DNA of 64,000 bases from Candidatus Nomurabacteria bacterium. GTDB taxonomy: Bacteria; Patescibacteriota; WWE3; UBA101185; UBA10185. The notes under the pieces were generated by a model. The model made no database searches. It had not been told where the DNA came from and saw nothing but the letters and a program-made list of their open reading frames with translations. Positions 16,161 through 48,381 of the stretch are shown in pieces. The position numbers and the translations under genes were made by a program. Each line of letters opens with the position of its first letter. Positions within the stretch are counted from its first letter, which is position 1. The DNA lies in the NCBI GenBank assembly GCA_020631855.1, contig JACKGU010000001.1:447597-511596 (forward strand), given 5' to 3'.

Positions 16161-17375
16161 CTATAGGTAATCTTTGAGACTCTTGCTTCTAGAAGGGTGT
16201 CGAAGCTTTCTAAGGGCTTTTGCTTCAATCTGCCTAATACGTTCGCGTGTGACACCAAACTCCTTGCCTACCTCTTCAAGTGTTCTGTTTCGACCGTCTC
16301 TTAAACCAAAGCGGAGCTCCAAAACTTTCTTTTCTCTAGGATTAAGTGTCTCAAGTACCTCGTCTATGTGGTCTTTTAACAAAACGTGGCTGGCAGAATC
16401 AAAAGGAGAAGCAATCGAAGTGTCTTCAATAAAATCTTTAAGAGAGCTGTCTTCTTCTCTCCCAACCGCTTTTTCCAGAGAGGCCGTATCTTGCATTATT
16501 TTCACAATCTCTCGGGCCTTTTCAACATCAATTTCCATCTCCTTTGCAACCTCCTCGGGTTTTGCGGGACGTTCAAGTTTCTGCTCTAAATCTCTGCTCA
16601 CCTTTCGGTACTTATTTATAGTTTCAATCATGTGAACCGGGATTCTAATTACACGAGCCTGATCGGCAATAGCCCTTGTTATTGCTTGGCGAACCCACCA
16701 TGTTGCATAGGTGGAAAATTTGTAACCTCTACGCCAATCAAACTTTTCAACCGCTTTCATAAGACCAATATTTCCCTCTTGAATCAAATCCAAAAAGGTA
16801 AGGCCTCTTCCCATGTAGCGTTTAGCTATAGAGACAACGAGCCTTAGGTTTGCGTTTATTAACCTTTGCTCTGCGCGATCGCACTCTTTTTTAGTTACTT
16901 TCTTTGAATAATTTTTAATTTCAGTTAAAACTTTAATGTTAATCTCGAAATGTTCGGCCGCCTGTTTGTCGGTAGGAGGCTTCTTATTTTCTTTTTTATA
17001 AGCACTTATGTATTTCTCATACTTTAATACTTCTACTTTACGCGCCAACTCAACCTCCTCAGCAGGAGTTAAAAGATCAACTTTTCCTATTTCTTTTAAA
17101 TACATTCGGACCGGGTCTACTGAAACTACTTTATCTAGTTTAATCTTTGATATGTCTAATTTTTCTAAGGTTAGTCTTTCGGCCTCTTTCACAGAATCAA
17201 CATCGTACACATCTACTGAGGCTTCGAGCAGCTTATCGTACAGAGTATCTAACAGTTCAATGTTTTCCTCTGCGTCAGGAAAGAATTCCAATATTTCGGA
17301 TTGGGTTATGTAACCTCTCTTTTTTCCCCTTGTTATTAACTTTTTAATGTTTTTTTCTAAATCTGTCGGTATCAT
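16161..17375 (-). CDS. rpoD: RNA polymerase sigma-70 factor
   Basis: Region 2 [36 protein letters not shown], region 4 [27 protein letters not shown]. Confidence 0.95.
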
Positions 17376-19144
17376 AATTCTTTTATTTTTTTTGATAGTT
17401 TTGTAAATTCTTGGGATAAACTTTTTACTTTTTGTGAGTCATTACCTAGTTCCGCAACTTTAATTTGATCAGATAAGGTTTTGAGCTCTCTTCTTAGGGC
17501 CTCCTTTCTTAACCTAGACACTAAATCGGCGAGCTCGTTTTTTAGTACTTTATCATTGTCAAGCAAATCGGCTTTATAGTCAAATAAAAACAGGTCCATA
17601 ACTCTTTTTCTCAAGATTTCATCCTGTATGGTTTCGGTGAACTGTTTAATACTAAAAATATCCTTTGCTGATAACAAATAATCTTTTAAAGAACTGAAGA
17701 GATCCCTATTTTCAAGAGTAAATACGGATGCGTCAAGTTTATACACGGTATCGTTGGCCAAGTCAATAGGCGCCTTCATTAGCAACGAGAACAAATAATC
17801 CTCTATCAATACTTTTGTTCCTGAATCGAGGCCGGTAGAGACGACTGCCGATTTGAGCTTTTCGTCTATATCCACCGACGATTCGGCAACTAAGTCCCTG
17901 ATTACGTCTTCGGAAACATCAAGCTGGGCAGATATTTTCTTTATATAGTGATCTTTTGTAACTCCGTTGGATATTAACGAAACTTTGGGAGCCAAATAAG
18001 CTAAAATCTTCTTTTTCCCTTCAGAGGAAGTGGCATCGTTGTCAGACATGGCATAAGAAATATAGAAATCATAGATATTTACAGCATCTCTTAGAACACG
18101 TTCTGCCTCAAGCGGATCGGCCCTTAACAACTCGTCTAGGTCTGCGTATTTAGAAGGTATAAGAGCAACTTTTATATCAAAACCGAACTTATCGGCCAGT
18201 AAAACCGCCCTGTCTGTAGCCGATCTTCCTGCCTTATCGGGATCGAAACAAAAAGTAATTTGATTAGTGTAATTACCTAATATCTTCAAATGCTCAGTTG
18301 TAAGGGCAGTTCCGGAAGAAGCAACAACATTTAAAAAGCCCGACTGGTGAGACGTTAACACATCCAACTGCCCTTCTACAAAAACAGCGCCTTCTTTTCT
18401 TATTGCTAACTTTGCTCTATCTAAGCCGTATATAAAAGAACTTTTATGAAAAACTAAAGTCTCAGAAGTATTTAAGTACTTTGGCTGTGAATCGTAAATG
18501 GTCCTGCCTGTAAATCCAACGGTCTTTTCGCTAACATCGCGCAAAGGGAAAACTACCCGCCCAACAAACTTGTCTATCAAGCCCTTTTTGCCTTCTACCG
18601 AGACACCCGACCTCAACAGCTGCTCTTTGGTATAACCTTTTTTTAACAAATATGAAGTTAGTAAATCCCAAGACTTGGTTTTGGGGGCAAACCCAACCTT
18701 AAAGTCCGAAATGGTGGTGCCAGTGAGCTTTCGCTTTTCTTTCAGATAAACTAAACCGGGTTTGCCCACAGCATGCGTTACTAACAAATGATTATAAAAA
18801 GAGGCAGTATCGGCATTTATCTTATATATGACCTTCCTTAACTCATGGTCCGGATCAAAATTCTTCTTTTCTATTACTATCCCTGCTAAATCAGCCAACC
18901 TTTCCAACGCCTGAGGAAACTCCACACCTTCTATTGCCTGAATAAATGAAAAAATGTCTCCGGCCTCACCACAGCCAAAACATTTAAAAATCTGGAGTTC
19001 CGATGAAACCATCAGCGAAGGAGTATTTTCTGAATGAAAAGGGCAGTTACCTTTATAATTACGGCCCGATTTCTTAAGATCAACATATTTGCCTATAACA
19101 TCGACGATATTAAGCGCTTGTTTAACTTGGGAAACTGAATCCAT
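17372..19144 (-). CDS. dnaG: DNA primase
   Basis: CHC2 zinc finger [13 protein letters not shown]...[17 protein letters not shown] region. 4-nt overlap with rpoD (classic dnaG-rpoD operon). Confidence 0.95.
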
Positions 19145-26055: not shown

Positions 26056-26691
26056 TTGAATAGTATCAAGTTTTACTATCGTAATGTCCTTAAGAATACA
26101 AAAAAAATCGAGGTTCAATTAGCTAAAAAGCCAAAGAGTTTACCCATTGTCTTATCACGAAGCGAAGTCGAGAAGATCTTAAAATCTCCCAAAAATGCAA
26201 AGCACAGACTCTTGTTGGCTCTTGCCTATGGAGCAGGACTACGAGTAAGCGAAGTTGTATCTCTGAAAATACAAGATTTGGATTTTGAAGAACTAACTGT
26301 GCACATTAAACAGGCGAAAGGACAAAAAGATCGAATAAGCGTAATGCCAGAAAGCTTGGCTGATAGTTTGAGGGGTTTAACTGCAGGGAAGGAAAGAGAC
26401 GATCTTGTCTTTGCTAGTGAGAGAGGCGGAAAGTTGGCAACGCGAACAGCACAGAAAATTTTTGAAAATGCGTTGAAGGACTCGAACGTAAAAAAAGATG
26501 CTACTTTTCATTCACTCCGACACTCCTTCGCGACGCATTTGCTTGAGAACGGAACTGATGTTCGCTATGTTCAAGAGTTGCTGGGGCATCAAAACATTAG
26601 AACAACTCAAAGATATACACAAGTAACCAACCCGAAGCTTAAAAATATAAGAAGCCCACTACGATTAAGGGTGAAGAAACTCGGCCTTTGA
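26056..26691 (+). CDS. tyrosine site-specific recombinase/integrase, catalytic C-terminal domain (N-terminal part frameshifted upstream at ~25818-26055)
   Basis: R...HSLRHSFATHLLENGTDVRYVQELLGHQNIRTTQRYTQV (R-H-R-Y catalytic tetrad region). Upstream 25860-26055 encodes the N-terminal SAM-like domain in another frame with a stop (ELQKTVRELKIKN... then YSPKTVKSYLYGLRKYFSFK). Paralog of the 47346-48261 remnant. Confidence 0.8.
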   Translation: MNSIKFYYRNVLKNTKKIEVQLAKKPKSLPIVLSRSEVEKILKSPKNAKHRLLLALAYGAGLRVSEVVSLKIQDLDFEELTVHIKQAKGQKDRISVMPESLADSLRGLTAGKERDDLVFASERGGKLATRTAQKIFENALKDSNVKKDATFHSLRHSFATHLLENGTDVRYVQELLGHQNIRTTQRYTQVTNPKLKNIRSPLRLRVKKLGL

Positions 26692-26773: not shown

Positions 26774-26863
26774 TGGCGGAGGGAGAGGGATTCGAACCCT
26801 CGTGCCGGTTTCCCGACGCGTCGCTTTCCAGGCGAGCCGATTAGTCCACTCTCGCATCCCTCC
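26774..26863 (-). tRNA. tRNA-Ser (anticodon GGA), CCA encoded
   Basis: GGAGGGATGCGAGAGTGGACTAATCGGCTCGCCTGGAAAGCGACGCGTCGGGAAACCGGCACGAGGGTTCGAATCCCTCTCCCTCCGCCA. 7-bp acceptor, long variable arm, T-loop GGTTCGAATCC. Confidence 0.9.
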
Positions 26864-28767: not shown

Positions 28768-29098
28768 ATAGTTAAACTAAAAATATTTGATTACCCTCAC
28801 TATAGAAAAAAATCAAGATTTCTTCCTTTATTTTATCCTTTAACATTCTTCTTGCAAGAATTTTCAGAAAATATGTCGTGTTGTGTGGTGTGTGCTTTTT
28901 ATAATTAACAAATTCTTTGTCTTCACACAAGAACCGAGGGACTGAGGGCGAGGCTCAGTGAAGGTATAAATCGCAACCACGGCCCTATCTGGCGGGACGT
29001 TGTGAACAACGTTAGAACTATTATACAAAACACTCCAGGCTACATCCACATTCCCGACCTACAACCACAATTAGCTATTCGCTCTGCTTATTAGAATG

Positions 29099-32000
29099 TT
29101 ACGCTGACTTAGACCATCTCTGGCGAAGATTTTGCATGGCTACGATGTTCCTAATCATTAATCGATACTCTATAGGGACTTCAATTGCCTTTTTACGGAC
29201 AAACCCTTTGTCCTGCATCTGAGCCAATAACTCCTTAAATTGTTGGTAAGTCAATGTCCTAGTACCATTTTCTCCATTAACTAAATTATCTTTAAGAGCA
29301 TTATAGGCGCTTAAAGCATGTGTTTCGGGGTTATTTCTAAAGTATGAATTTACAACTCCTTCTATAGGAGACTGTTCAACAGTAGTGTCTAGAGGAAGAT
29401 ATTTTTCACCATATTTGGAAAACTCCTGCATTATTACCTGCAAATATGAGGCTGTATCAGTTCTTCCTCTCAACCTTTGTCTTACTAACTCTCCTCCAAG
29501 TTGATTAAGCACTCCATACCTAATTCTAGTTGCTTCAGACCCTTCAATTCCACTTACTTCTAAACATCTAGCTATAAACCCATTAATGAATTGTGCGCCA
29601 TTACCTGATTTCAATAACTTAAACATCTCCACATCTCTTTCTTCTAAAGCCAGGTACATACTTCTATCAATTGCACCAAGCGACTGGCCTGAGGCTTCCG
29701 GATCAATCATATAATTACCAGCATGGGGGTCAGAATGAAAAACAAATACTTTTTCCCCTTCTGGGGTTGTTATGGGAGCAAAATCAAACTGATAATCGAA
29801 GAAACCCAACAAGTTGTCGACAACTTGTTGTTTAGTCTCACTGGAAATTTCAGAAGATGACAGGAACTTGTTGAGTGTGATCCCTTGATACTGATCTTCG
29901 ACCTTGACTTTTTTGGAGGTGTAGCGCCTTTCGGGGGCATCAATGGCAGTTTTTCCGCTTTTTTCATTGTATGATTGAACTGTTAACCTAAAGGCATCAT
30001 CACGCTCAGCGTAAGTAGAATCATTAATATCTCTGATACACCAGGTATTTGAGAGATCTAGCAATGACTCGGCTAGTCGAGCGTTTTGCCTAGTTTTTCC
30101 TCTAGTATTTTGCTCTACTTCACCTAATACCGTTGAACTGAAAGTGTAGGATAATCGAATAAATTCTTCAGCATTAGGGTTTAACATTTTAATAACTACT
30201 TTTTTTGAAGACCCATCTTCGGCTCGAATAGTCGCTCCATAAGTGGTAAAAAGACTCCCTCCTCCTAAATAAGAATCAAGTGAAATTAAATCCTCCTCTA
30301 ATAATCTGGCCAATTCAGGATCACTTTGCGCCTTGGATAGCAAGTTATCCCAAAAACGCAATTTTTCCATTCCTTTCATACTGTCTTGTGTTTGTGACAA
30401 ACGTTCACGGACAGCAGGTTCAAAATTTATAAGCTGAACTGCCATTTGCATACCTCTTACGAAAACCGGAGAAGTTTCTCCCGCTTTGATCATTGCTTCA
30501 GTAGCTGCAGGCAGATTGCTCACTATTTCAGTTTGCTCCTGACTATAAGCAGAAATTACTTGACCTTGTAAGTTCTCTAAGGTTTCGAAGTATGTAGAGC
30601 CGCTTTCTTGAGCTTGTTTGCCAATGACAGAATTAGGTTGATGATGATATCTAAAACCGAAATAGCGTATATTACGAGTTCCTGAAGTAAGAATTTGTGG
30701 CAGATCTTCCGAATAATCTTTGTTTTTCACCTTTCTGTAAACGTATTTCCCATCTTCCCTTTCTCTAAACTCCACATTTCGTAGCCTTCTCATATCAACA
30801 GAGTCGGTTTTGAGAGCCTGGAACATGAAGGGAATAAGCATCTGTGCAGCTGGCAACCCTACCACTTTTGCGTCACCTTTTTTGATAGCACTACTCAAAG
30901 CTGCCCTGAAAAACTCTTCTTTTAATCCCAAGCCATCAACAAGCATTCTCTCAAGTAAGTTGCGACCATCTTCAGAAACAAGTAACCCGTCTTGATCAGA
31001 CATAGCTTTTAGCGCGATTGCCAACTTTTGGCTATCTGGCAGATTTTTAAAGTAGTCAATGGTATCACTGAAAGTAGCGAAAGCCGACCTGCCAGACTCA
31101 GTTAAAATAAACTTTCCTGATTTCTTATCGTATTGAATGTCATTTTTTCGCCATTCCTTTTCACCGAGATAAGTCCTAACCCATTCAACAGCTAAATCAG
31201 TAGAGACTTCTCTTGCAACTTGACCACTACCAGAAGCAGTCTTGATTAAGAGATCTGCTTTTTGGGTTAAGATGGAACTAGCAATATCGGTTGTAGCAAC
31301 TCCATCTAGACTTTCCTCACCAGAAATATACTCAATTGCAAGCTCATCTAATCTCTGTTTAAAGGCTTGGTAAGTGGGTATATCTGTGATTTGCTCTGCA
31401 ACCAGAATGGCCCCTTCAAATCCAAGCAACTTATATTCCTTGAAATAAAAGTCCATCTTATCCTGAATCACAACTTCAGGGTCATTCAGGTATGCGGTAT
31501 TAAGGGCTTTTATCAATTCTCTACGTTGGGGACTGTAAGGAAAATTTTCATTTAATAACCCTACTAATGCTGGATAATCTTGTTGTCGAAGTTTTCCTGG
31601 CTCGGTTAGTCTATGCAACTCATCTCTCACAGGTTTTGCAAGTAAAACAGAGTAAACATCGTCTTCATACAAAGAAAATTTTGCATTAACTGGTCGCTGG
31701 CTATATTTGTTTTTAGCGTCCTTCACATAAGCCGCAAGATCCTGGATGTTCTCAAAATGTACTTCTTCTATTTGCTTAACTATCTCTTGGACAAAATGTA
31801 GTTGATAAAATCTATCAAAGTCCCTTATGCGATCTCTTTCGAAAACTCCATTCCGATCATCTTCATTTGCCAATTTAAACAACGGGTGACATAAGGCTAA
31901 AAGCTGGTATTGATCCATCGCACCTATGTCGGCATGGGTATCTCTCATGATAGATTCAACAAATACAAAAAGCTTTTCTTCGGAGGATGCAATGGTGTTG

Positions 32001-34189
32001 GTAACAAATTCAATTTTAGTACTAGTTCTCTCAATCTCTCCCTTTTTGCCAGCTTCAGCATAAAGCAACTCTCTATCTAAACTATATTCTTGAATCAGGT
32101 CATCAATCGTAAGCTTTCGTGGTTTCGGCTCTTCACCTTGCCCTGAAGCCTCAACAAACGAGCTTTTAAGATTTGCTCGCATTGAGTTCATGGCACTCCA
32201 CTTAGGATCACCATGCTCTCGCCAGTTCTTCATAGCAGAGTACCCGATTTTGTCTTGGACTAAAGACTCAAGATGTTTTCGTGCAAAGTCGTAATCATCA
32301 AGATAGGCAAGACCTACTGCAACGTATTGTGCTTTGGTTTCTGGATCTAATTCATGATCATAGGCGTATTTATTTAATAGTTGTTCAATATCCCATCTGG
32401 ATTTACCGTCAATTTGCTCCCTAAACTCGGCAGGGGTTGGCAAGGACTCTATTTCTTTTCCATCATCACGTCTAACCAACTCTTTTCCAAATATCTTTTT
32501 ATAAGCAGATTCGATTATTTGTCTATTGCCAGGTCCAATGTTTTTATCCTTTATGGGGAAATAATAAGAATTTGTTAGTGGTTCAAAGCCAGCCAATTTA
32601 ACCGCCTGAAAGATATCTTCAATTTGTTCCTGGTCCAACTCTCCATCCGGAACATCAGGCAAATAATATCGTTCAATATAGTCAAATAAAATATTTTTTA
32701 ACTCTTCATGTAGTTGAGCTGAGCGGTTTGAGTCATATCTCAATGAGTTTCCGTCTGAATCCACAAAACTACCATCCTTTGTGGTAGGGAGGTCTCCTTT
32801 AACTAAATTATTCACACTACCTAAAAACTGGGCTATAGAGTCCACATCCGTATAAAACACAGCGTCTTTATCAGTAAACTGATCAAATCGATAGTTTACA
32901 AAATAAACTAAGCTCCTGAGGGGATCGCCATTCCTCTCATAACCAAACAATTTTTGAGTTAACTCGCTGATTTTGCTATTTTGAAACATATGTTCTGCAA
33001 TTTGTGCGTAACCAGTAATTTCCGAAATGTCTTTGAAACTTGGTGACAAATGAGAATAACCTCTGGTATTTGTTAAGAAAAACATCTTAATTTCATTTTC
33101 TGACATTCCTTCAGCCATTAATCTTTGAACTACCAATGATCCGACTTTCTTAGCAACCTCTTTTTCCGTGTCTTTCTCTGGGTATACCTCGCTCAAGCCA
33201 TAATATGAGCCATTGTCAGCTACATCAAAAAAAGTGCCAAGGTCTCTTGGGTGCAGTTTTGTTAAATATTGTTCAACAGAGCCTAAATCATCCTTAACAG
33301 CAGCATCAATAATTGCTTCAAAATTAGTCATTCTTGGCTCTCTCCTTAATTCTGGAGGTAGCGGGGTGTAATCAAGATGACTTGTCTCGTAATCTTTTAT
33401 CGCATGGATTCCTAATTGTTGTATTGCTCTTAAGACAGGAGCCTGGTGTTCAGTTCCTCTGCGATTGCCAAAATGATCAGCTAACTTAGTAAGCACGTCT
33501 GCAGTGGCAGTGGACTTAAGACCTACTTTTTCTAGCAATTCTGGAGCTCCAAAATCAGAGGCCATTTCATGCAACCAATCAACACCCAATGAAGTACCTC
33601 GTTTTGCCTCTGCGTTAAATGCAGCTCTAGTAGTACCATTTGTCAAATGTTTAACCTCATGAGCCATAATACCCACTACCTCATCTAGGCTGTCGTAAAG
33701 ATTCATTAAGGATTGCGAAATGAAGATTGTCCCATCAGGATAAGCAAAGGCAGTGGGTTCCTGACCTTTGTTCATGATGACAACTCTTACTTTTCCTTCC
33801 CACTGTTGATTACCCTGAACCATTTTGTCGACATAATCTTGGATAATATCCGTCCTGGCACTACCCACCTCCAAGGCCTTAGTTGCAGACAAGTATTTAA
33901 ATTCTGCTCGAACTTGTTCGGTAATGTCCTTGTTAACTTTTTGCCCCTTACTATCTTCTGCCTCAAGAATTATTGGCTCTAAAACATCAATTTCCACTGC
34001 AGGGTTTGAGTTATATTCATTATCTAAATCAATCCTGACATGTTCGGCTTTGTTTTTGTTTCTACGCCCCCTAAACAACTCTGTGTTGGTAGACAGGGAA
34101 GTAGGCACCTCTTTTACTGATACTGCAGACGGAGTTTCCCCTTGTGGAGGGACACTAAGATTTTCTGGTAGAGATCCTTCAAAACTCAT
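29099..34189 (-). CDS. giant mosaic protein (1696 aa): N-terminal HEXXH metalloprotease-like motif + long central region + C-terminal ABC1/UbiB-type atypical kinase-like motifs
   Basis: Residues ~130-180: NKGQEPTAFAYPDGTIFISQSLMNLYDSLDEVVGIMAHEVKHL (zincin HEXXH in M48-like context). Residues ~1290-1520: LGGGSLFTTYGA (Gly-rich loop), VVIKMLNP (ABC1 VAVKVQRP-like), FVFHSDPHAGNYMID (ABC1 HADPHPGN catalytic loop), AIDRS. No signal peptide or TM seen. Confidence 0.75.
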   Translation of the reverse strand: MSFEGSLPENLSVPPQGETPSAVSVKEVPTSLSTNTELFRGRRNKNKAEHVRIDLDNEYNSNPAVEIDVLEPIILEAEDSKGQKVNKDITEQVRAEFKYLSATKALEVGSARTDIIQDYVDKMVQGNQQWEGKVRVVIMNKGQEPTAFAYPDGTIFISQSLMNLYDSLDEVVGIMAHEVKHLTNGTTRAAFNAEAKRGTSLGVDWLHEMASDFGAPELLEKVGLKSTATADVLTKLADHFGNRRGTEHQAPVLRAIQQLGIHAIKDYETSHLDYTPLPPELRREPRMTNFEAIIDAAVKDDLGSVEQYLTKLHPRDLGTFFDVADNGSYYGLSEVYPEKDTEKEVAKKVGSLVVQRLMAEGMSENEIKMFFLTNTRGYSHLSPSFKDISEITGYAQIAEHMFQNSKISELTQKLFGYERNGDPLRSLVYFVNYRFDQFTDKDAVFYTDVDSIAQFLGSVNNLVKGDLPTTKDGSFVDSDGNSLRYDSNRSAQLHEELKNILFDYIERYYLPDVPDGELDQEQIEDIFQAVKLAGFEPLTNSYYFPIKDKNIGPGNRQIIESAYKKIFGKELVRRDDGKEIESLPTPAEFREQIDGKSRWDIEQLLNKYAYDHELDPETKAQYVAVGLAYLDDYDFARKHLESLVQDKIGYSAMKNWREHGDPKWSAMNSMRANLKSSFVEASGQGEEPKPRKLTIDDLIQEYSLDRELLYAEAGKKGEIERTSTKIEFVTNTIASSEEKLFVFVESIMRDTHADIGAMDQYQLLALCHPLFKLANEDDRNGVFERDRIRDFDRFYQLHFVQEIVKQIEEVHFENIQDLAAYVKDAKNKYSQRPVNAKFSLYEDDVYSVLLAKPVRDELHRLTEPGKLRQQDYPALVGLLNENFPYSPQRRELIKALNTAYLNDPEVVIQDKMDFYFKEYKLLGFEGAILVAEQITDIPTYQAFKQRLDELAIEYISGEESLDGVATTDIASSILTQKADLLIKTASGSGQVAREVSTDLAVEWVRTYLGEKEWRKNDIQYDKKSGKFILTESGRSAFATFSDTIDYFKNLPDSQKLAIALKAMSDQDGLLVSEDGRNLLERMLVDGLGLKEEFFRAALSSAIKKGDAKVVGLPAAQMLIPFMFQALKTDSVDMRRLRNVEFREREDGKYVYRKVKNKDYSEDLPQILTSGTRNIRYFGFRYHHQPNSVIGKQAQESGSTYFETLENLQGQVISAYSQEQTEIVSNLPAATEAMIKAGETSPVFVRGMQMAVQLINFEPAVRERLSQTQDSMKGMEKLRFWDNLLSKAQSDPELARLLEEDLISLDSYLGGGSLFTTYGATIRAEDGSSKKVVIKMLNPNAEEFIRLSYTFSSTVLGEVEQNTRGKTRQNARLAESLLDLSNTWCIRDINDSTYAERDDAFRLTVQSYNEKSGKTAIDAPERRYTSKKVKVEDQYQGITLNKFLSSSEISSETKQQVVDNLLGFFDYQFDFAPITTPEGEKVFVFHSDPHAGNYMIDPEASGQSLGAIDRSMYLALEERDVEMFKLLKSGNGAQFINGFIARCLEVSGIEGSEATRIRYGVLNQLGGELVRQRLRGRTDTASYLQVIMQEFSKYGEKYLPLDTTVEQSPIEGVVNSYFRNNPETHALSAYNALKDNLVNGENGTRTLTYQQFKELLAQMQDKGFVRKKAIEVPIEYRLMIRNIVAMQNLRQRWSKSA

Positions 34190-34446
34190 AACTTCATTAT
34201 GCCATAATGACTAAATTAGCGAAACATGAACAAGTGCCATAAGATATATCACGAGCCCTGAGCCACTGTGGCCACTTTTGTGGGGCGTTTGCTGCCTGGT
34301 TGGAGAAGTTATACCTCCGGAGCTTTTAAACCGCTTCTTGGGGACGTTGTGAAGAACGAAAAACCAAACGTTTTAATAGCTTAACCTGCATTTCTATAAA
34401 CACCAAAAGTTTGATAACAATAAAACGATGTAGCTTTTTCATAAGA

Positions 34447-35337
34447 TTATCTGATAGTGGCTCTACTAACTGGTCCATCTAACTCATTGGAGAAGCTAAT
34501 GAGTTGACCGCCATTGGTAAAGGCAATGCTGATATTTGGCGTTTCTGTGGATTCGTAGACCTTAATGCAGGGAACGCCGTTGCCGTTGTAATACAAGCCT
34601 TCAATGTCCTTATTTAAGTCCTCACTGCAGGTTTCAAGCGGTTGGTTATGCTGGATTGTTTGCGCTTCACCCCTCCAAATGAAAAAATAATTTACCCTAT
34701 CATTACCACCGTCTTTTTTGCCAGTTTCCAGTGCCAATTTACTCAGATCAATGTTGCCAATAGACGAGGAATGTTTGGCAATAAAGGCTTTGGCAATTTG
34801 TTCCACCTCTTCCTGAGAGTAGTTAGCGGAGTAATCATACTCTTTGCCCTCACTAAACCAGCGACTGCCATCAGTCCTGTATCCCCAGGTTCCAGGAGTT
34901 TCTTCTACCTGCAAAACATGATTAGTTTCAGGATCCACAATAAAGTAAGTTAAGCCAACAGTATAGGTTTCACCTTTGGCAGGAACAAACTTGTCTTCCT
35001 CCAAGCTATAAAAAGCATTACTGCACTCATATTCCACTTCCACGGTCGGCATTTCCAAGAATTCACGAATAGAGGCAATAGCTTTTTCTCGCTCATCTAC
35101 CGGCCGAGCGGTCAGAGAACACAACTTTTCTTTTAATTCTTTGGTGGCTTGAGCGGTGTGGTCCCGATATTTTGGGTTGGTACTAAGCTTTTCTGTGATC
35201 TCTTTGATCTCCTGGATCTTTTGATCCTCAACCTGTTGTGCCTGAAACGACTGGTATTTTGAGCGTACGACATTAAGACCAAAGACGATTACTGTCAGAA
35301 GTAAAGCTGTGATTATTAAACCTTTTATGATTTTCAT
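34447..35337 (-). CDS. membrane-anchored hypothetical protein
   Basis: 296 aa. N-terminal signal anchor MKIIKGLIITALLLTVIVFGLNVV, then a hydrophilic extracytoplasmic domain. No motif recognised. Confidence 0.45.
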   Translation of the reverse strand: MKIIKGLIITALLLTVIVFGLNVVRSKYQSFQAQQVEDQKIQEIKEITEKLSTNPKYRDHTAQATKELKEKLCSLTARPVDEREKAIASIREFLEMPTVEVEYECSNAFYSLEEDKFVPAKGETYTVGLTYFIVDPETNHVLQVEETPGTWGYRTDGSRWFSEGKEYDYSANYSQEEVEQIAKAFIAKHSSSIGNIDLSKLALETGKKDGGNDRVNYFFIWRGEAQTIQHNQPLETCSEDLNKDIEGLYYNGNGVPCIKVYESTETPNISIAFTNGGQLISFSNELDGPVSRATIR

Positions 35338-35370
35338 ATAAACCTCCTTTCAGAGTGTTGGGATGTTAGC

Positions 35371-35712
35371 TTGGGTGGTCCCAAAATGTCAAATTCAAAT
35401 TATTTCTTTCACCTGGCTAAATATAACATAAATGATGACAAGGAGTCCGTGTTGAATGTGACTGAGAGTCACTACCCTAAAGACATGGGTAAACCAATTT
35501 CACACCAACACATTCTCAAAAAATTTGGAGCTAAACTGCAGAAAACCAGGAAAAGCAAAGGGGTCACTCAGGAAGAACTAGCGTTCAAGATGTCCATGGA
35601 CAGAACCTACATTGGTATGATTGAGCGTGGGGAACGCAACCCTACTATACGAACACTGTACAAAATTGCCAAGGCTTTGAAAGTTGATTCTTCAGAATTG
35701 TTGCCGTTTTAG
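35371..35712 (+). CDS. XRE-family helix-turn-helix transcriptional regulator
   Basis: GVTQEELAFKMSMDRTYIGMIERGERNPTIRTLYKIAKAL is a Cro/C1-type HTH. Divergent from the upstream minus-strand gene (cI/cro-like arrangement). Confidence 0.8.
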   Translation: MGGPKMSNSNYFFHLAKYNINDDKESVLNVTESHYPKDMGKPISHQHILKKFGAKLQKTRKSKGVTQEELAFKMSMDRTYIGMIERGERNPTIRTLYKIAKALKVDSSELLPF

Positions 35713-35720
35713 CTTATACT

Positions 35721-36362
35721 TCACCACTCGTTTGGTCCTACAGTTCCAGAAGCGTTTAACGATTGAATTGCAGTTCCTGTGGCTAATGAAGCTAGAGTAC
35801 TTGGTGGGATCAGTTTCTCGACTTCAACGGGCATAATCGGTAATTGTTCCTTGTAGAAACGCCACACTTTTACTTTAAGAACATCGTTTCTTTTCAAATC
35901 TTCATAATATTTCTTTACAGCCTCTTCTAAATCCTTAACTGCCCACCCTAAATGAAGCATGGTCCCTCTCTTGTTTTGAGTCAGATGAATAGATTTGTTT
36001 TTATCCAAATCGCCTTCATGATACAAAACAAAGTGGTGGGGAGAATAATAGTGTGTCAACGACCAACGCAAGTCTTCAATTTTTTGCCAATCGTACTTGT
36101 TCATGTACTTTTGGATAAACTCTTTAAACCTGGCTTTTGTATTACTCGGTTCCGTTAAACCTGTATATAAACCACCAAAATATTCAATAGCACAACACCA
36201 TAAAATAAAAGCTCCCACCAACGCTCCGTTATCATCACAGGTTCCGTCTTTGCTCATTCTGCAACACCGGCGGATGTCGCCAATAGACCAGTCGATTATC
36301 CTATCAAAATGTGCATCTATGTATGCTTTAGCCAGTTGGATTTCACCCTTCTTAATATTCAT
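35721..36362 (-). CDS. hypothetical protein (downstream gene of two-gene cassette)
   Basis: 213 aa, Cys-rich N-terminal region (RRCCRMSKDGTCDDNG...WCCAIEYFGG). No known family recognised. Confidence 0.45.
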   Translation of the reverse strand: MNIKKGEIQLAKAYIDAHFDRIIDWSIGDIRRCCRMSKDGTCDDNGALVGAFILWCCAIEYFGGLYTGLTEPSNTKARFKEFIQKYMNKYDWQKIEDLRWSLTHYYSPHHFVLYHEGDLDKNKSIHLTQNKRGTMLHLGWAVKDLEEAVKKYYEDLKRNDVLKVKVWRFYKEQLPIMPVEVEKLIPPSTLASLATGTAIQSLNASGTVGPNEW

Positions 36363-36364
36363 AT

Positions 36365-37204
36365 TTATTTGCTTAACTTCAAAAAATTTATAAAAACTCG
36401 ACCGAAGCCGGTATTGATGTATCCTCCAGGGTAATCAAACTGATCTGGTCTTTTGCCCTTATAAAGCTCGTCAGCTGTAGGGGCTTCAGCAACCATGGGC
36501 GAGCTAACTTTCATAGGCTGTATCAATGATTCTGACTGGAGCCGTTGGATTGATCGATCGATAACAGCCTCATCTATTGCGCGGTCCTTAAGCAAAGTAC
36601 AAATAGAGTCGCGAGTAACACCTTTTGCCCCATTGCCACCGTTTTTGGGCAAGTTAGAAAGAAAATGTTGGTCCATTGTTTTGAGAACCAGCAAATCAAC
36701 ACTATCAAGATTCAGCAACGTTGATAGCACTAAATCTTTTGTCTGAGGGTGAACATCTAAATTTTGCAGAGCAGTGGCCACAAATTCTGCAATAACTTCA
36801 TCAAAACCTCTTCCTGGATGAGTCAGTAGTTTTCTGGTAATGTCCTCTAGTCTAAAAACGATTGAATCTTCAAAATAGTCAACTGCTTCCTGCTTAAGTT
36901 CAACCCCATTAAGCCTTTTATTTATATGCTCAATGCACGAGTCAATTTCAGCCTCACGCTTTTTGTTGATTTTTTCATCTACATAATCTTTCCAAGTTCC
37001 CAGAGTCAGTTGGTAGAAAGGGAAGATGTACTGTGCCAGATTGTGGAAGAAGTGACCGGTTAAACTAACAACCTCTTCCTTATTATCAACAGTAGCATTA
37101 TCCAGCACTTTACCCACTGACTGAGCTAAATTCCTTTGCTGGCGAGGCATTAATGATTGGTTGTTATCTTGACTCATAAATTGACCGTAGTGTAACAAAA
37201 GCAA
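36365..37204 (-). CDS. hypothetical protein (upstream gene of two-gene cassette), weak HEPN-like Rx4H motif
   Basis: 279 aa. Contains ITRKLLTH (R-x4-H). 3-nt spacing to the downstream gene. No other motif recognised. Confidence 0.4.
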   Translation of the reverse strand: MLLLHYGQFMSQDNNQSLMPRQQRNLAQSVGKVLDNATVDNKEEVVSLTGHFFHNLAQYIFPFYQLTLGTWKDYVDEKINKKREAEIDSCIEHINKRLNGVELKQEAVDYFEDSIVFRLEDITRKLLTHPGRGFDEVIAEFVATALQNLDVHPQTKDLVLSTLLNLDSVDLLVLKTMDQHFLSNLPKNGGNGAKGVTRDSICTLLKDRAIDEAVIDRSIQRLQSESLIQPMKVSSPMVAEAPTADELYKGKRPDQFDYPGGYINTGFGRVFINFLKLSK

Positions 37205-37320
37205 ACTGTTCTTACCAGATAATGATTACTACTCGTCACTATATGTTGGTATAAATCACCACTTAATTTATTGAGACTTACAGTGTGTTTTGCCTAGACT
37301 TTTAGTCAGCAGAACATACT

Positions 37321-37587
37321 ATGACTAGAAAATTTGACGCTTCTACTAACGATTCCCATTTTTTGAGCTATGACATTGGTTTGGCAGCTGCTTTAGCTAC
37401 CCTTCATTTTGAGTTGATCTCCTTGAACCGGGACAATCCCAGAAAAATAGGCTTTATCTTTTCTCGCACTCCTGAGCTGGAACAAGCCACTCAGGAGTAC
37501 TTTGCTGGTCGGTTATCAGTGGATGCCCGGTCGTTCTTTGAAAACATCAAAATGCCTAAAAACAGAATTTTCTCATCAGCAATATGA
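37321..37587 (+). CDS. hypothetical small protein (first gene of phage-like overlapping operon)
   Basis: 88 aa. Its stop overlaps the next start. Confidence 0.35.
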   Translation: MTRKFDASTNDSHFLSYDIGLAAALATLHFELISLNRDNPRKIGFIFSRTPELEQATQEYFAGRLSVDARSFFENIKMPKNRIFSSAI

Positions 37588-37778
37588 AGATCAGTGAAGC
37601 CCAACTCACCAGCTTCAAAGCTTTATACAAACAGCATTTTGGTGAGGAGTTGAGCCGGGAAGACGCTTTAGAGAAAGCTCTCAAATTGGTCCGAATGATG
37701 CAGCTGGTTTATAAGCCAATGACCAAAGAGCAATACCAACAAGTTATCAAACGCCAGCAACAAATTTTTAACTTATGA
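37584..37778 (+). CDS. hypothetical small protein
   Basis: 64 aa. ATGA-type overlaps on both sides (translational coupling). Confidence 0.35.
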   Translation: MKISEAQLTSFKALYKQHFGEELSREDALEKALKLVRMMQLVYKPMTKEQYQQVIKRQQQIFNL

Positions 37779-38524
37779 AAGACAGAGCCTTTAACATTAA
37801 AGATGAATCCAGTGACAAAGCCTACTTTTCTATTGTACCTAATTACATCATTAACCACTCCAGTTTAGAGGAAAGAGGCTTTTATTTAACCCTTAAACGC
37901 ATCGCTGGTGAGCATGGTGCTGTTTACTACTCAGCCAGAGAGTTGGGCGCTAAGTGTGGTATCAGCAAAAACACCGTCTACAGGTTATTGAGGTCCCTGC
38001 TTAAAAGAGGCTGGATAAAAGAATCCGGCACTATTCCCGCCAAAACTAAACCTCGCATGACCTACTCAATTGTTGATTTATGGCAACTCAATACAGACTT
38101 TTATCGCTCGCAAAAGATTGTCCCATCAGAGGGACAATCTCAATTAAATAAACAGATAGTTACAGCAGAGGGGCAAACATCGTCCCAAATGAGGGACACA
38201 AAAGAAGAACCAGGTAAAGAAGAAAATAATTCCGCTGAGAAAGTTCAAAAGAAAACCCGCTCGACTAAGTGCCCCAATCCTCATGGTCATCACCGTTGCA
38301 TTGAAAACATTCACTCAGTCGAATTGGAGTTTGGCAAAAAATTCGTCAATTTTCCTAAACAAATCAATGCTCTGCACAAATTGTATAAAGCAGGTTTTGG
38401 TGATGAGCAGATCAATCACTGTCTTAACGCTATGGACAAGGATCCATTTTGGAGCGAGCAGGGCTGGGACTTGATGAATGTGGCCAATACCCTGAGTAAA
38501 GGAGGTAAAAAATATGGCGTTTAA
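37775..38524 (+). CDS. HTH/winged-helix DNA-binding protein (phage replication/regulatory-like)
   Basis: ARELGAKCGISKNTVYRLLRSLLKRGWIKESG HTH segment. C-terminal part has Cys/His-rich KCPNPHGHHRC. Confidence 0.45.
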   Translation: MKDRAFNIKDESSDKAYFSIVPNYIINHSSLEERGFYLTLKRIAGEHGAVYYSARELGAKCGISKNTVYRLLRSLLKRGWIKESGTIPAKTKPRMTYSIVDLWQLNTDFYRSQKIVPSEGQSQLNKQIVTAEGQTSSQMRDTKEEPGKEENNSAEKVQKKTRSTKCPNPHGHHRCIENIHSVELEFGKKFVNFPKQINALHKLYKAGFGDEQINHCLNAMDKDPFWSEQGWDLMNVANTLSKGGKKYGV

Positions 38525-38831
38525 AAAAGATCAACCAGCCGATAAACAACTTAAGACGGTCCCAGAGGTGTTAATAGACAATCAAGAGTTGGCTTTAAGA
38601 AGAAGGGCGTGGAGTCAGTATTACAGTAAAGTCAGAAGGTCCACTACTTGCAGGCGATTTTTTAAGATGAAAGCAGCTTTTAAAGCAGGCAATATGAAAC
38701 TCTTTTGGACACTCCATAGGCAAAACCATCAGGCATTAGTTGAAGATAGAGCTATGGCCACTCCGCCTTTTCCGGATCCGGATATAGAAATGGTTTATGG
38801 TCGCTTAGGCAGAAAGGAAAACTATGAATGA
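38514..38831 (+). CDS. hypothetical protein
   Basis: 105 aa, overlapping neighbours on both sides. Confidence 0.3.
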   Translation: MAFKKDQPADKQLKTVPEVLIDNQELALRRRAWSQYYSKVRRSTTCRRFFKMKAAFKAGNMKLFWTLHRQNHQALVEDRAMATPPFPDPDIEMVYGRLGRKENYE

Positions 38832-39399
38832 AATCATAACCGCTAAATTATCAGGAGAAACCGAGCAGCAGTACACTGCCTTTCTGTTGTACTGTGAAGT
38901 GGGAAGCTTGCGAAAGCTCTTTGACACCTGGGACAAGTTAGGGCAGGCTTCGGGCGAAGTGAGGGCAGATTTTATGAATAAACTTGGGGATCGACCTAGC
39001 CATGCCACCATTGAGCGTTGGAGCAAAAAATACCAGTGGGTTAAGCGAGCCGATGCTAGACTCTCAGAAGAAATGCAGGATTTGGATGAAAAGCTAAGAA
39101 AAATTAAACAGCGTCGTGCCTATCTTATTTCCGAGATTTTTTGGGAGAAACTCAAGCGGGTGCAAAAGCAAATGAAGTCAGGCGAACTAGCAACAGTCCA
39201 AGAAGTTAAAACTCTCTGGGAAATGATGCGCATCGAGTTTGGGGAAACTACCAGTAAACACGAGTTTGTAAACGGAATTAACGAAGCTGAGCAAAAGCCT
39301 CCTACCCCGGAAGAAGAGGAATTGGGCATGGCTATTGATCAGGCGGTGAAAGATTACTACGACAAGTTGCGCCAGAAAAAAGATGAAACAAACAAATGA
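38824..39399 (+). CDS. hypothetical protein (phage-like)
   Basis: 191 aa. Position immediately upstream of the recombinase. Confidence 0.3.
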   Translation: MNEIITAKLSGETEQQYTAFLLYCEVGSLRKLFDTWDKLGQASGEVRADFMNKLGDRPSHATIERWSKKYQWVKRADARLSEEMQDLDEKLRKIKQRRAYLISEIFWEKLKRVQKQMKSGELATVQEVKTLWEMMRIEFGETTSKHEFVNGINEAEQKPPTPEEEELGMAIDQAVKDYYDKLRQKKDETNK

Positions 39400-39468
39400 T
39401 GACTAAAATACATCTTTTAGCCTAGCTATTAATGAACGCTTGCGCTACTATGTAGCTAAAAACAGAAC

Positions 39469-41229
39469 ATGACCATACCAAAAAATAAGAAAAGTTTACG
39501 CTATGTGCTCTATGCTCGTAAGTCTTCAGACAGCGAGGATCGGCAAGTGCAATCCATCGAAAGCCAAGTCACCAAGCTCAGAGAACTGGCTCAGGATAAA
39601 GGTTTTCGGATAGTCAAATCTTTCACTGAAGCCAAGTCAGCCAAGAAACCAGGTAATCGAATCGTTTTTGAAGAAATGATGGCCACTGTTGAGAATGGTG
39701 AAGCAGACGGAATCCTTTGCTGGCAGATCAATCGTCTTTCCAGGAATCCGGTTGATAGCGGCAGAATCAGCTGGCTTCTCCAACAAAATGTGATCAAGTC
39801 CATCCAAACCTATGACCGGGAATACTTGCCAGGTGATAATGTCATTATCTTTAGTGTGGAAGCTGCCAGCTCCAACCAATACATCTTAGACTTGAGCAAG
39901 AATGTCAAACGGGGCTTGGAAACCAAACTTAATAAAGGCTGGTTGCCCAATCTAGCTCCGGCCGGATACTTAAACGAAAAAGTCGAAAACACCATAGTCA
40001 AGGATACAGAGCGGTTTAATTTAATTGCCAAAATGTGGGAATTAATGCTGACCGGAGCCTACACTCCTCCCCAAATTCTCAAGATTGCCAACGAAGATTG
40101 GGGCTACTTAACCAGAAAAACTAAGAGACTAGGTGGCAAGCCCTTATCTAGAAGCGGTATCTATCGAATCTTCACCAATATTTTCTATGCCGGAGTCCTG
40201 GAGCATAAAGGCAGACAGTATGAAGGCAAGCATGAACCAATGATTACTCTGGACGAGTTTGACAGGGTTCAGATGCTTTTAGGTAGAAAGGGCAAACCAA
40301 GACGGAAAACCCATGACTTTGCTTTTACTGGTTTTATTCGTTGTGGAGAGTGTGGTTGCCTCTACACAGCTGAAACTAAGAGGAAGCTGATCAAAAAGAC
40401 CGGCAAATTCAAAGAATACACCTATTACCACTGCACCAGGAAGAAAAAGACCACTAACTGCAGCCAACGCAAGATGGTCCCTTTAAACAAACTAGAAAGA
40501 CAAATTGAGGAGGAACTAGCCAGTATTACTATCATTCCCGACTTTAGGAAGTGGGCCCTAGAAGTCTTAAACGAAAATAATGACCGAGAAATTGCCGATA
40601 GAACCAAGATTCATGAGATGCAAAGCAAAACCTTGCTAACTACCCAGGCGGAATTGGATAACCTAACCAAGATGAGATATCGAGACTTAATTGATGACGA
40701 GATGTTTCTCAAACAAAAGAATGAACTCCAAACCAAGTTAACCGATCTTAAGGCAAAATTGCGCCACACAGAAGAAAGAGCTGAGAAATGGCTAGAACTG
40801 ACTGAGCAAACCTTTAACTTTGCTACCTACGCTCACTCGGCTTTCCTAACCGGAGGGTTAGAACTGAAGAAGGAAATTTTGATGGCTCTGGGTTACAACC
40901 CCAAAATCAAGGCAGGAAAACTCTACCTGGAGACGATGAAGTGGTTTGTGCCCATCAAAAACAATGCCCCAGCACTGCAAAAGGAATATCAAAGGTTAGA
41001 ACTAACCAAAAAGAGCGATAATCAGGCATATTCAGAAGATTTGTTGGCTCTGCGTACACGATGGCGGAGGAGGTGGGATTCGAACCCACGTGCAGGTTGC
41101 CCCGCGCTTGGTTTTCGAGACCAGCCCGTTATGGCCACTTCGGTACTCCTCCACATACAAAATATAGCCAAGGAAAAACGTGCGTTGAACCAAATTGCTT
41201 ACAATCTTAGGCGCATGAGTCGTCCCTAG
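39469..41229 (+). CDS. large serine recombinase (serine integrase)
   Basis: N-terminal resolvase catalytic domain YVLYARKSSDSEDRQVQSIESQ (catalytic Ser), recombinase domain, zinc-ribbon FIRCGECGCLY...YYHCTRKKKTTNC, coiled-coil C-terminus. The last ~55 codons run across tRNA-Ser(CGA) on the opposite strand, so the true C-terminus is uncertain. Confidence 0.85.
   Translation: MTIPKNKKSLRYVLYARKSSDSEDRQVQSIESQVTKLRELAQDKGFRIVKSFTEAKSAKKPGNRIVFEEMMATVENGEADGILCWQINRLSRNPVDSGRISWLLQQNVIKSIQTYDREYLPGDNVIIFSVEAASSNQYILDLSKNVKRGLETKLNKGWLPNLAPAGYLNEKVENTIVKDTERFNLIAKMWELMLTGAYTPPQILKIANEDWGYLTRKTKRLGGKPLSRSGIYRIFTNIFYAGVLEHKGRQYEGKHEPMITLDEFDRVQMLLGRKGKPRRKTHDFAFTGFIRCGECGCLYTAETKRKLIKKTGKFKEYTYYHCTRKKKTTNCSQRKMVPLNKLERQIEEELASITIIPDFRKWALEVLNENNDREIADRTKIHEMQSKTLLTTQAELDNLTKMRYRDLIDDEMFLKQKNELQTKLTDLKAKLRHTEERAEKWLELTEQTFNFATYAHSAFLTGGLELKKEILMALGYNPKIKAGKLYLETMKWFVPIKNNAPALQKEYQRLELTKKSDNQAYSEDLLALRTRWRRRWDSNPRAGCPALGFRDQPVMATSVLLHIQNIAKEKRALNQIAYNLRRMSRP
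41062..41152 (-). tRNA. tRNA-Ser (anticodon CGA), CCA encoded
   Basis: GGAGGAGTACCGAAGTGGCCATAACGGGCTGGTCTCGAAAACCAAGCGCGGGGCAACCTGCACGTGGGTTCGAATCCCACCTCCTCCGCCA. Long variable arm, perfect acceptor and T stems, one 27:43 mismatch. Confidence 0.8.
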
Positions 41230-48293: not shown

Positions 48294-48381
48294 TGGCGGA
48301 GGGTGTGGGATTCGAACCCACGGACGGTTTTATCCGTCACGGCTTAGCAAGCCGCTGCATTAGCCACTCTGCCAACCCTCC
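48294..48381 (-). tRNA. tRNA-Ser (anticodon GCU), CCA encoded
   Basis: GGAGGGTTGGCAGAGTGGCTAATGCAGCGGCTTGCTAAGCCGTGACGGATAAAACCGTCCGTGGGTTCGAATCCCACACCCTCCGCCA. Long variable arm. Confidence 0.9.

Follow-up and report, generated by a model that had tools for sequence, protein, structure and literature searches.

UbiB/ABC1 proteins are ancient and linked to disease (COQ8A ataxia), and their substrate and mechanism are still undefined. Canonical members are ATPases without a known substrate, and we know of no UbiB protein shown to act on a protease. To our knowledge, all characterised M48 and UbiB proteins handle hydrophobic clients at membrane or lipid surfaces. In COQ8A, the A339G substitution raises both ATPase activity and cis-autophosphorylation. 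Among M48 proteases, the periplasmic BepA (YfgC) combines the protease with a TPR domain; its Glu-201 is the third zinc ligand, and its His-246, reported to be conserved in M48, is an autoinhibitory fourth ligand acting as a latency switch. In plant plastoglobules, PGM48 (M48) is co-expressed with ABC1K7 and ABC1K3, and its abundance shifts with ABC1K6 dosage. There, an M48 protease and UbiB-family proteins occupy one lipid-droplet surface as separate proteins, and their direct coupling is undemonstrated. The plant ABC1-S12 fusion (At5g24810 / LOC_Os06g48770) is a precedent for ABC1 and a peptidase-clan hydrolase in one polypeptide, but its partner is a serine beta-lactamase-like S12 domain, its ABC1 domain is N-terminal, it lacks a solenoid, and it is a eukaryotic, mitochondrial protein.

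The window analysed here is a 64,000-nt stretch of DNA from a Candidatus Nomurabacteria bacterium, a member of the candidate phyla radiation. Its largest ORF (29099..34189, minus strand, as are all features of the protein given below) starts with ATG and encodes a soluble protein of 1696 aa (192.5 kDa, pI 5.1); the runners-up encode 1120 and 965 aa. The preliminary description, made from the sequence by eye, had singled out this giant ORF as the largest of the window, and the ORF proved to be real. The NCBI record of the protein (MCB9823464.1, Candidatus Nomurabacteria bacterium GCA_020631805.1) is named 'M48 family metalloprotease'. Every motif peptide quoted in the preliminary description is present in the translation (EPTAFAYPDGTIFISQSLMNLYD, VVGIMAHEVKHL, GGGSLFTTYGA, VVIKMLNP, FHSDPHAGNYMID and IDRS), and the motif coordinates were confirmed by re-translation. 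As had been proposed, neither a signal peptide nor a TM segment was detected in the 1696-aa protein (maximum 19-residue Kyte-Doolittle mean: 1.29). Residues 1-45 are predicted to be disordered. A promoter and terminator scan found sites no more numerous than in shuffled sequence. As judged from its sequence, the protein is an M48 zinc protease joined to a ~940-residue alpha-solenoid and a divergent UbiB/ABC1-type domain, a new architecture of known constituent domains. No description of a protease-UbiB fusion was found in the searchable literature, in line with the initial impression of novelty, and the M48-solenoid-UbiB design is apparently undescribed so far.

The M48 (minigluzincin-type) zinc metalloprotease domain (33395..33982) covers residues ~70-265. 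The Pfam M48 profile (PF01435) scored 34.4 bits against a cut-off of 20.3 (E 2.5e-8), with profile positions 4-82 of 186 covered, and the N-terminal domain conforms to the minigluzincin fold. HEVKH (33647..33661; H177, E178 and H181), predicted to provide zinc ligands and the catalytic base, is kept in 122 of the 123 family members, which bears out the M48-type HEXXH N-terminus recognised earlier and shows its glutamate to be conserved. EMASD (33554..33568; E208...D212) is probably the helix of the third zinc ligand (ExxxD), with E208 in 123/123 and D212 in 122/123 members, and its alignment with BepA 'NEQEAD' scores below significance. HQAPVLR (33428..33448; H248...R254) probably corresponds, by conservation and spacing, to the M48 'HP...R' motif and to BepA His-246. 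Both H248 and R254 are invariant in alignment A1, within T-E-H-Q-A-P-x-x-R, and the E208-to-H248 spacing is 40 residues versus 45 in BepA, no BepA/3C37 alignment having extended to the H248 region. By analogy with BepA His-246, H248 is a probable autoinhibitory fourth zinc ligand. The N-terminal domain is predicted to be a complete M48 metalloprotease of the soluble BepA/3C37 type, with H177, H181 and E208 as ligands and E178 as the base.

The NAFA-like strand, the HEXXH motif, the ExxxD helix and probably the fourth-ligand His are common to this domain, BepA and Geobacter Q74D82 (PDB 3C37). A helical domain that may bind clients comes after the protease, an order also seen in BepA. However, only ~198 BepA residues align, the third ligand lies 31 residues from HEXXH versus 65 in BepA, the helical region of ~940 residues fails to match the TPR domain of BepA, and the UbiB domain sets the protein apart from both BepA and 3C37. 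Whereas BepA is periplasmic, the family protein is predicted to be cytoplasmic because it has no signal peptide. The central all-alpha solenoid or scaffold (30515..33322, residues ~290-1225) is family-specific; it has no specific known relative, and all 123 hits of the central region were family members.

The UbiB/ABC1-type protein-kinase-like domain (29102..30502) comprises residues 1230-1696 and takes in both the N-terminal 'KxGQ' lid region and the C-lobe helices; at about 465 aa it is considerably longer than the C-terminal ~250 aa first assigned to it. The Pfam ABC1 profile (PF03109) reached 21.5 bits, just under its gathering score of 22.9 (E 1.5e-4), TIGR01982 reached 12.7 bits against a cut-off of 487, and ADCK3 was missed by sequence-only PDB searches. 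When the family alignment was compared by hhalign with four proteins having PF03109 scores of 241-273 bits, the probability was 98.0% (E 2.1e-13), with residues 1230-1686 aligned against 45-395 over 343 columns. The protease and UbiB halves were modelled separately, and the UbiB fold was the best structural match of the C-terminal domain, distinct from RIO, APH and Hanks kinases. The assignment by eye to ABC1/UbiB, and not to Hanks kinases, therefore held.

The motifs of this domain are conserved throughout the family. RGMQ (30446..30457; R1245...Q1248), the family form of the UbiB KxGQ motif, is paired with KLGQ by hhalign; its Gln is found in 123/123 members, its first position is R in 117 and K in 5, and L or M takes the place of the Gly. 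GGGS (30254..30265; G1309-S1312), aligned to ASGS of canonical ABC1, is a Gly-rich nucleotide-binding loop that replaces the UbiB Ala-rich loop (G 118/123, G 106/123, G 122/123 and S 123/123; GGGSL in 92/123). K1334 of VVIK (30188..30190), the predicted ATP-anchoring lysine, aligns to VVVK and is K in 106 and R in 17 of the 123. The predicted catalytic loop HSDPHAGN (29714..29737; H1485-N1492) aligns to HSDPHPGN, with G1491 and N1492 in all members and the catalytic-loop Asp, D1487, whose conservation had been in question, in 121/123. DRS (29660..29668; D1508-S1510) aligns to DFG and would supply the equivalent metal-binding Asp (D 122/123, R 120/123).

Relative to UbiB/ABC1/ADCK proteins (COQ8A/ADCK3, E. 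coli UbiB, M. tuberculosis Rv3197 and plant ABC1K), homology extends across the whole UbiB core and the N-terminal lid, and includes the lid Gln, the VxxK Lys, the HxDPHxGN catalytic loop, the metal-binding Asp and the C-lobe 'LPxE..L' helix. Nevertheless, identity is only 14-20%, and the family differs in the change of the Ala-rich loop to GGGS, QVH to TT[YF], KxGQ to Rx[LM]Q and DFG to DR[SN]. Canonical bacterial ABC1 proteins (A5) have C-terminal TM helices, which the family protein lacks. Unlike canonical UbiB, the domain sits at the C-terminus of a 1700-aa protein and is found in Patescibacteria, a group that generally lacks quinone biosynthesis. By its alignment and motifs, the C-terminal domain is a complete UbiB/ABC1 protein-kinase-like domain, though a highly divergent one.

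The family comprises 123 clusters among 1.84 billion proteins, full-length and nearly all of 1500-1750 aa. Residue conservation was counted from an alignment of the 123 full-length members, across which the catalytic motifs are near-invariant. With M48 above its gathering score, ABC1 just below it and this near-invariance in 123 homologues, the motif matches are not due to chance. The analysis establishes the domain identities, a fixed domain order and length across the family, near-invariant catalytic centres, and the lack of TM segments and signal peptide. Named family records are from Patescibacteria throughout, with members from Parcubacteria, Microgenomates and Gracilibacteria MAGs. Several binchicken TPA MAGs carry the titles 'Gammaproteobacteria', 'Pseudomonadales' and 'Ectothiorhodospiraceae', which we do not trust and which are not disproved; their loci have 36-46% GC, and the encoded proteins share 28-70% identity with the Nomurabacteria one. 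The family is apparently specific to Patescibacteria. Databases list it solely under the names 'M48 family metalloprotease' or 'hypothetical protein', which hides half of its enzymology.

As a whole, these data are best explained by a soluble, cytoplasmic three-part enzyme of a resident gene, an inferred ATP-coupled protease, and we hold this reading with slightly better than even confidence. The UbiB domain, with GGGS at the position of the COQ8 Ala-rich loop, would bind ATP and hydrolyse or transfer it. The nucleotide cycle or a phosphorylation would pass through the solenoid, which may double as a client-binding platform, and the signal would unlatch the M48 site or deliver substrate to it. 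The client would most likely be a membrane-associated or lipid-modified protein, given the hydrophobic clients of the characterised M48 and UbiB proteins. The coupling between the protease and the UbiB domain is purely inferred from their fusion. The broader proposal, that the family is a new class of ATP-coupled protease widespread in Patescibacteria, in which a UbiB domain with a kinase-like Gly-rich loop and no membrane tie drives or licenses M48 via the solenoid, is doubtful. By analogy, the Patescibacteria fusion could be a 'Rosetta-stone' form of the PGM48-ABC1K partnership, orthology between the plant and Patescibacteria proteins not being indicated.

The preliminary description had placed the gene inside an integrase-flanked island and concluded from this mobile context that it encodes an effector, toxin or defence protein. 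Recombinase genes indeed flank the gene on both sides (Tyr, 26056-26691, 2.4 kb downstream; Ser, 39469-41229), with tRNA genes and an MFS transporter gene between them, but a location inside one island is unsupported. Immediately upstream lies a phage-derived, satellite-like integrative element (34447..41229, from p296 through the Ser integrase) that is separate from the system of the protein. It contains the membrane-anchored p296, XRE, two unknowns, DUF5659, a replication initiator, a TerS-like protein and the large Ser integrase, which ends over tRNA-Ser(cga). If the gene were mobile-element cargo, an accessory effector, toxin or defence gene spread laterally among Patescibacteria, the recombinases or XRE genes near all four closest homologue loci would fit. 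In L005 (74% identity), a Ser recombinase...DUF5659...XRE...Ltp series stands directly upstream; L029 (81%) has the order XRE, gene, Ser recombinase, the last 46 nt downstream; and the upstream side of L030 (77%) carries a Tyr integrase together with an SLFN/AlbA_2 gene. Between the window and L029, the XRE genes share about 50% identity (54% / 49%). The same reading gains from the conservation of the protein, 65-66% identical between genomes whose RpoD, DnaG and GAPDH are 52%, 37% and 43% identical, and from a gene GC3 (0.26-0.37) out of step with the flanks in L001 (0.53) and L006 (0.20). However, the Ser recombinases of the close loci are only 24-34% identical to one another, and each of the four has its own recombinases and gene order; no common element is present. 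GC3 groups the gene (0.324) with host genes in the window, apart from the genes of the adjacent element (0.37-0.51), and the pattern is the same in L005. Only 5 loci (the window, L005, L029, L030 and L011) have recombinases less than 10 kb away, and no recombinase match was found in L009, L013, L014, L016-L019 and L023. Ten Pfam-annotated or syntenic homologue loci have housekeeping neighbours; such neighbourhoods surround L001, L003, L006, L035, L036 and L037. Ribosomal, replication and metabolic genes surround relatives of 65-69% identity (L001 and L006) as well as all distant ones, and an rpoD-dnaG linkage is common with L010. Searches of 2.9 M viral contigs (IMG/VR), 50,697 phage records and 72,556 plasmids found no relatives, and neither the protein nor its neighbours matched PADLOC-DB models at E 0.01 or better. 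Across 18 loci, no neighbour or partner gene is conserved except XRE and Tyr recombinase, each in 3 loci. No att-type repeat was found around the gene and the element together; since long repeats are not left behind by serine integrases, the boundaries of the element are not proven. An 18-nt direct repeat flanking the gene (28994 and 34341) is unique in the window; it was rejected as an att site, being non-extending and absent from relatives, and the homologue loci have no flanking repeats in common. We therefore regard the mobile-cargo reading, and with it the effector, toxin or defence role, as unlikely. The gene is a resident chromosomal gene adjoining a mobile element, a conclusion that is not airtight: recombinases near all four closest homologue loci make some mobility, and lateral spread, possible within the closest clade.

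Two further readings concern what the protein does. The protease might be the sole enzyme, with the UbiB-like domain as a non-catalytic, pseudokinase-like nucleotide or lipid sensor and the solenoid as a passive spacer. The great divergence of the domain (14% identity to ADCK3), DRS in place of DFG, RxxQ in place of KxGQ and Arg for K1334 in 17/123 members would agree with this, as would the literature on canonical UbiB, in which ATPase activity is merely low and trans-kinase activity is not seen. However, the Lys, the catalytic-loop Asp and Asn, the metal-binding Asp and the lid Gln are essentially invariant, and the P-loop has become more kinase-canonical, a shift not expected in a dead domain; we judge a silent UbiB domain improbable. 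It is very unlikely, in our estimate, that the protein is exported as an effector that modifies proteins or lipids of the host bacterium. Many Patescibacteria are established episymbionts, and a large protein with two enzyme domains and a 45-residue disordered N-terminus could suit that role. Against export stand the lack of a signal peptide or TM segment, with the hydrophobicity threshold exceeded in only 8/123 members, and the lack of conserved secretion-system genes beside the gene in the comparison of 18 loci. Host-interaction effectors typically diversify, and conservation above RpoD would be unusual for one. In the few comparisons possible, the protein ranks above RpoD and among the better-conserved large Patescibacteria proteins.

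The fusion carries no membrane anchor and is found in organisms generally regarded as quinone-free. A Gly-rich P-loop occurs naturally in the UbiB domains of this family, and the same change in COQ8A raises ATPase activity and autophosphorylation. The fusion offers a Rosetta-stone hypothesis, in which UbiB activity gates M48 proteolysis, together with a soluble, self-contained test protein. If the ATP-coupled reading is true, this would be the first UbiB-family domain with a hard-wired, identifiable partner activity, the co-localisation of PGM48 and ABC1K proteins in plastoglobules might reflect the same partnership, and the question of UbiB function would become directly testable in one polypeptide.

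The longest ORF of the window occupies positions 29099-34189 on the minus strand, begins with ATG and encodes 1696 residues (192.5 kDa, pI 5.1); the next longest ORFs encode 1120 and 965 amino acids. The protein lacks a signal peptide and any hydrophobic segment (its highest Kyte-Doolittle mean over 19 residues is 1.29); it is predicted to be soluble, and disorder was predicted for residues 1-45. The preliminary description had likewise reported the largest ORF of the window without a signal peptide or transmembrane segment; all of its peptides were found in the translation, and its assignment of domains was confirmed. The window corresponds to contig JACKGT010000005.1 of GCA_020631805.1 (Candidatus Nomurabacteria bacterium). 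The NCBI product name (MCB9823464.1) is 'M48 family metalloprotease', and databases annotate the M48 half alone.

In the M48 domain, H177, E178 (the glutamate of the HEVKH motif) and H181 are kept in 122 of 123 full-length homologues, as is D212, while E208 is kept in all of them. E208 and D212 (HEMASD) were paired with the 'NEQEAD' motif of BepA in an alignment with a sub-significant score. The third zinc ligand of BepA is Glu-201; His-246, 45 residues further on and reported to be conserved in M48 proteins, acts as an autoinhibitory fourth ligand. The segment H248...R254 (TEHQAPVLR), 40 residues beyond E208, is invariant, and H248 might correspond to BepA His-246, although no alignment covering this region was obtained.

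At the C-terminal end, Pfam ABC1 (PF03109) matched residues 1311-1520 with 21.5 bits, just under the cut-off of 22.9, and ADCK3 was not retrieved by sequence-only PDB searches. Four ordinary ABC1 proteins from the genome scan (PF03109, 241-273 bits) were aligned and compared profile to profile with the alignment of the giant family by hhalign, which gave a probability of 98.0% and an E value of 2.1e-13 over 343 aligned columns (giant residues 1230-1686 versus positions 45-395 of the first, 551-aa ABC1 sequence). Because of this homology, the earlier call of a UbiB-type rather than a Hanks kinase was correct. The signature motifs are partly altered. The canonical KLGQ is R-x-[LM]-Q in the giant family, with Q1248 in 123/123 homologues and the Arg in 117 (Lys in 5), and the Ala-rich loop A-S-G-S-I-G-Q-V-H is replaced by G-G-G-S-L-x-T-T-[YF]. 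VVVK corresponds to VVIK (residue 1334: Lys in 106 homologues, Arg in 17) and HSDPHPGN to HSDPHAGN, whose catalytic-loop D1487 and N1492 are kept in 121/123 and 123/123, respectively, whereas DFG is D-R-[SN] (D1508 in 122/123). In addition, the hydrophobic C-terminal helices in the consensus of the ordinary ABC1 proteins are absent from the giant protein. In the UbiB literature, the lid Gln positions a candidate nucleophilic water for ATP hydrolysis, and the loop mutant A339G of COQ8A has raised ATPase and cis-autophosphorylation activities; the Gly-rich version of this loop is the natural state of the giant family. A perfect 24-nt palindrome, CAACAAGTTGTCGACAACTTGTTG, is located at 29807-29830 in the coding sequence of this domain, shortly 5' of the codons for the catalytic loop.

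A word-indexed search retrieved 30 homologues with 28-100% identity, of which the 13 closest full-length ones were covered end to end. Named records belong to Nomurabacteria, Moraniibacteriota, Curtissbacteria, Gottesmanbacteria, Gracilibacteria, the 'Microgenomates group' and the 'Patescibacteria group', and MAGs with two matches contain one gene with its halves split over contig ends. Many binchicken TPA MAGs carrying the gene have proteobacterial titles (Gammaproteobacteria, Pseudomonadales, Ectothiorhodospiraceae), and their loci have 36-46% GC. These records (L018/L021 and L015/L022, and the titles of L007-L009, L011, L012, L014, L016, L018, L020, L021 and L023) are probably mislabelled or misbinned. 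The individual domains are known; no description of the M48 and UbiB combination, the family-specific solenoid or the altered UbiB motifs was found in the searchable literature.

Along the strand of the giant gene, the region begins with tRNA-Ser(cga) (41062-41152, minus), a large Ser integrase (39469-41229, plus; phrog_95, E 1e-67), a small-terminase-like (TerS-like) protein (38824-39399; phrog_6299, E 2e-15), a 105-aa ORF, a HTH_36/DnaD-like replication initiator (37775-38524), a 64-aa ORF, a DUF5659 protein, two proteins of unknown type, an XRE regulator (35371-35712) and a membrane-anchored 296-aa protein (34447-35337). The giant gene is followed by small ORFs, an MFS transporter, tRNA-Ser(gga) (26774-26863) and a short Tyr recombinase (26056-26691). 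Based on these gene assignments and the 49-51% relatives of the TerS-like protein on IMG/VR viral contigs (L038-L040), the 34447-41229 block is a compact phage-derived, satellite-like integrative element; it contains no capsid or large-terminase gene. In L005, a close homologue locus, the equivalent place is taken by a relative of different composition (Ser recombinase, Prim-Pol, DUF5659, XRE, Ltp lipoprotein). About the last 56 codons of the Ser integrase gene lie antisense over the complete tRNA-Ser(cga) gene, which suggests integration at this tRNA with the attachment site within the integrase reading frame. This integrase gene was not called by NCBI (gap in L031) and encodes 586 aa in the Logan record (L032). 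Two paralogous short Tyr recombinases (26056-26691 and 47565-48164; 49.5% identical, approximately 200 aa, catalytic domain only) are convergent with and directly beside tRNA-Ser(gga) and tRNA-Ser(gct) (48294-48381), so that, of the four tRNA-Ser isoacceptors that a bacterium would be expected to have, three (gga, gct and cga) are recombinase-adjacent within 22 kb. The giant gene lies between the two copies of an 18-nt direct repeat, GGGACGTTGTGAA[C/G]AACG (28994-29011 and 34341-34358; 17/18 identical), one 88 nt past its stop and the other 152 nt ahead of its start. The repeat has no further copy in the 64 kb (0.02 expected), does not extend further and was not found around homologues in eight other loci.

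The preliminary description regarded the giant gene as mobile-island cargo and hence as a possible effector, toxin or defence gene. Indeed, a recombinase lies within 8 kb in all four loci of at least 74% identity (the window, L005, L029 and L030), and an XRE gene is located just upstream in three of them (window; L029, 3516-3728; L005, 9007-9282). However, the recombinases and gene orders differ among these four loci, with Ser recombinases 24-34% identical at most. The XRE copies of the window and L029 are 54% identical over 56 aa, the gene being divergent from the giant gene in the window and L005 and co-directional in L029; rather than belonging to the mobile element, this XRE protein could be dedicated to regulating the giant gene. 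Moreover, the GC3 of the giant gene (0.324) falls within the range obtained for 13 host ORFs of the window (0.22-0.40), whereas element genes have 0.37-0.51, and L005 repeats this contrast (0.26 versus about 0.40-0.42). At L001 (a 1.08-Mb contig), L003, L006, L035, L036 and L037, the neighbours are RNR, MnmA, RecG, MreB/PBP2, ribosomal-protein, ATP-synthase and repair genes and a recombinase is absent; by tblastn, none was detected at eight further loci. The rpoD-dnaG pair adjoins the giant gene in L010 (66% identity) and lies 10 kb off in the window (16161-19144). Searches of IMG/VR, of the INPHARED phages and of the PLSDB plasmids found no relatives, and PADLOC gave no match. The cargo reading and the function derived from it were thus not supported, and we take the giant gene to be resident, within a region that is plastic.

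Some mobility of this resident gene may nevertheless have occurred. Where RpoD, DnaG and GAPDH share 52%, 37% and 43% identity between genomes (window versus L001, L006 and L010), the giant protein shares 65-66%, and its GC3 is steady at 0.26-0.37 while that of flanking genes ranges from 0.20 (L006) to 0.53 (L001). This points either to an exceptional constraint on the protein or to its lateral exchange among Patescibacteria. Such exchange may have taken place within the closest clade.

The architecture of the family is fixed and includes two complete, nearly invariant catalytic centres. We propose that the UbiB domain hydrolyses ATP or transfers its phosphate, an ATP-dependent step which the Gly-rich loop would favour, and that this step is relayed via the solenoid to an M48 site, whose proposed latency is based on the precedent of BepA and on the invariance of H248. 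In plant plastoglobules, the M48 protease PGM48 and ABC1K proteins occupy the same lipid surface and show co-expression, and an ABC1-S12 hydrolase fusion exists in plants; both are parallels from published work to the giant protein. Its clients are probably hydrophobic or membrane-associated, since all characterised M48 and UbiB proteins, to our knowledge, act at membranes or lipid surfaces.
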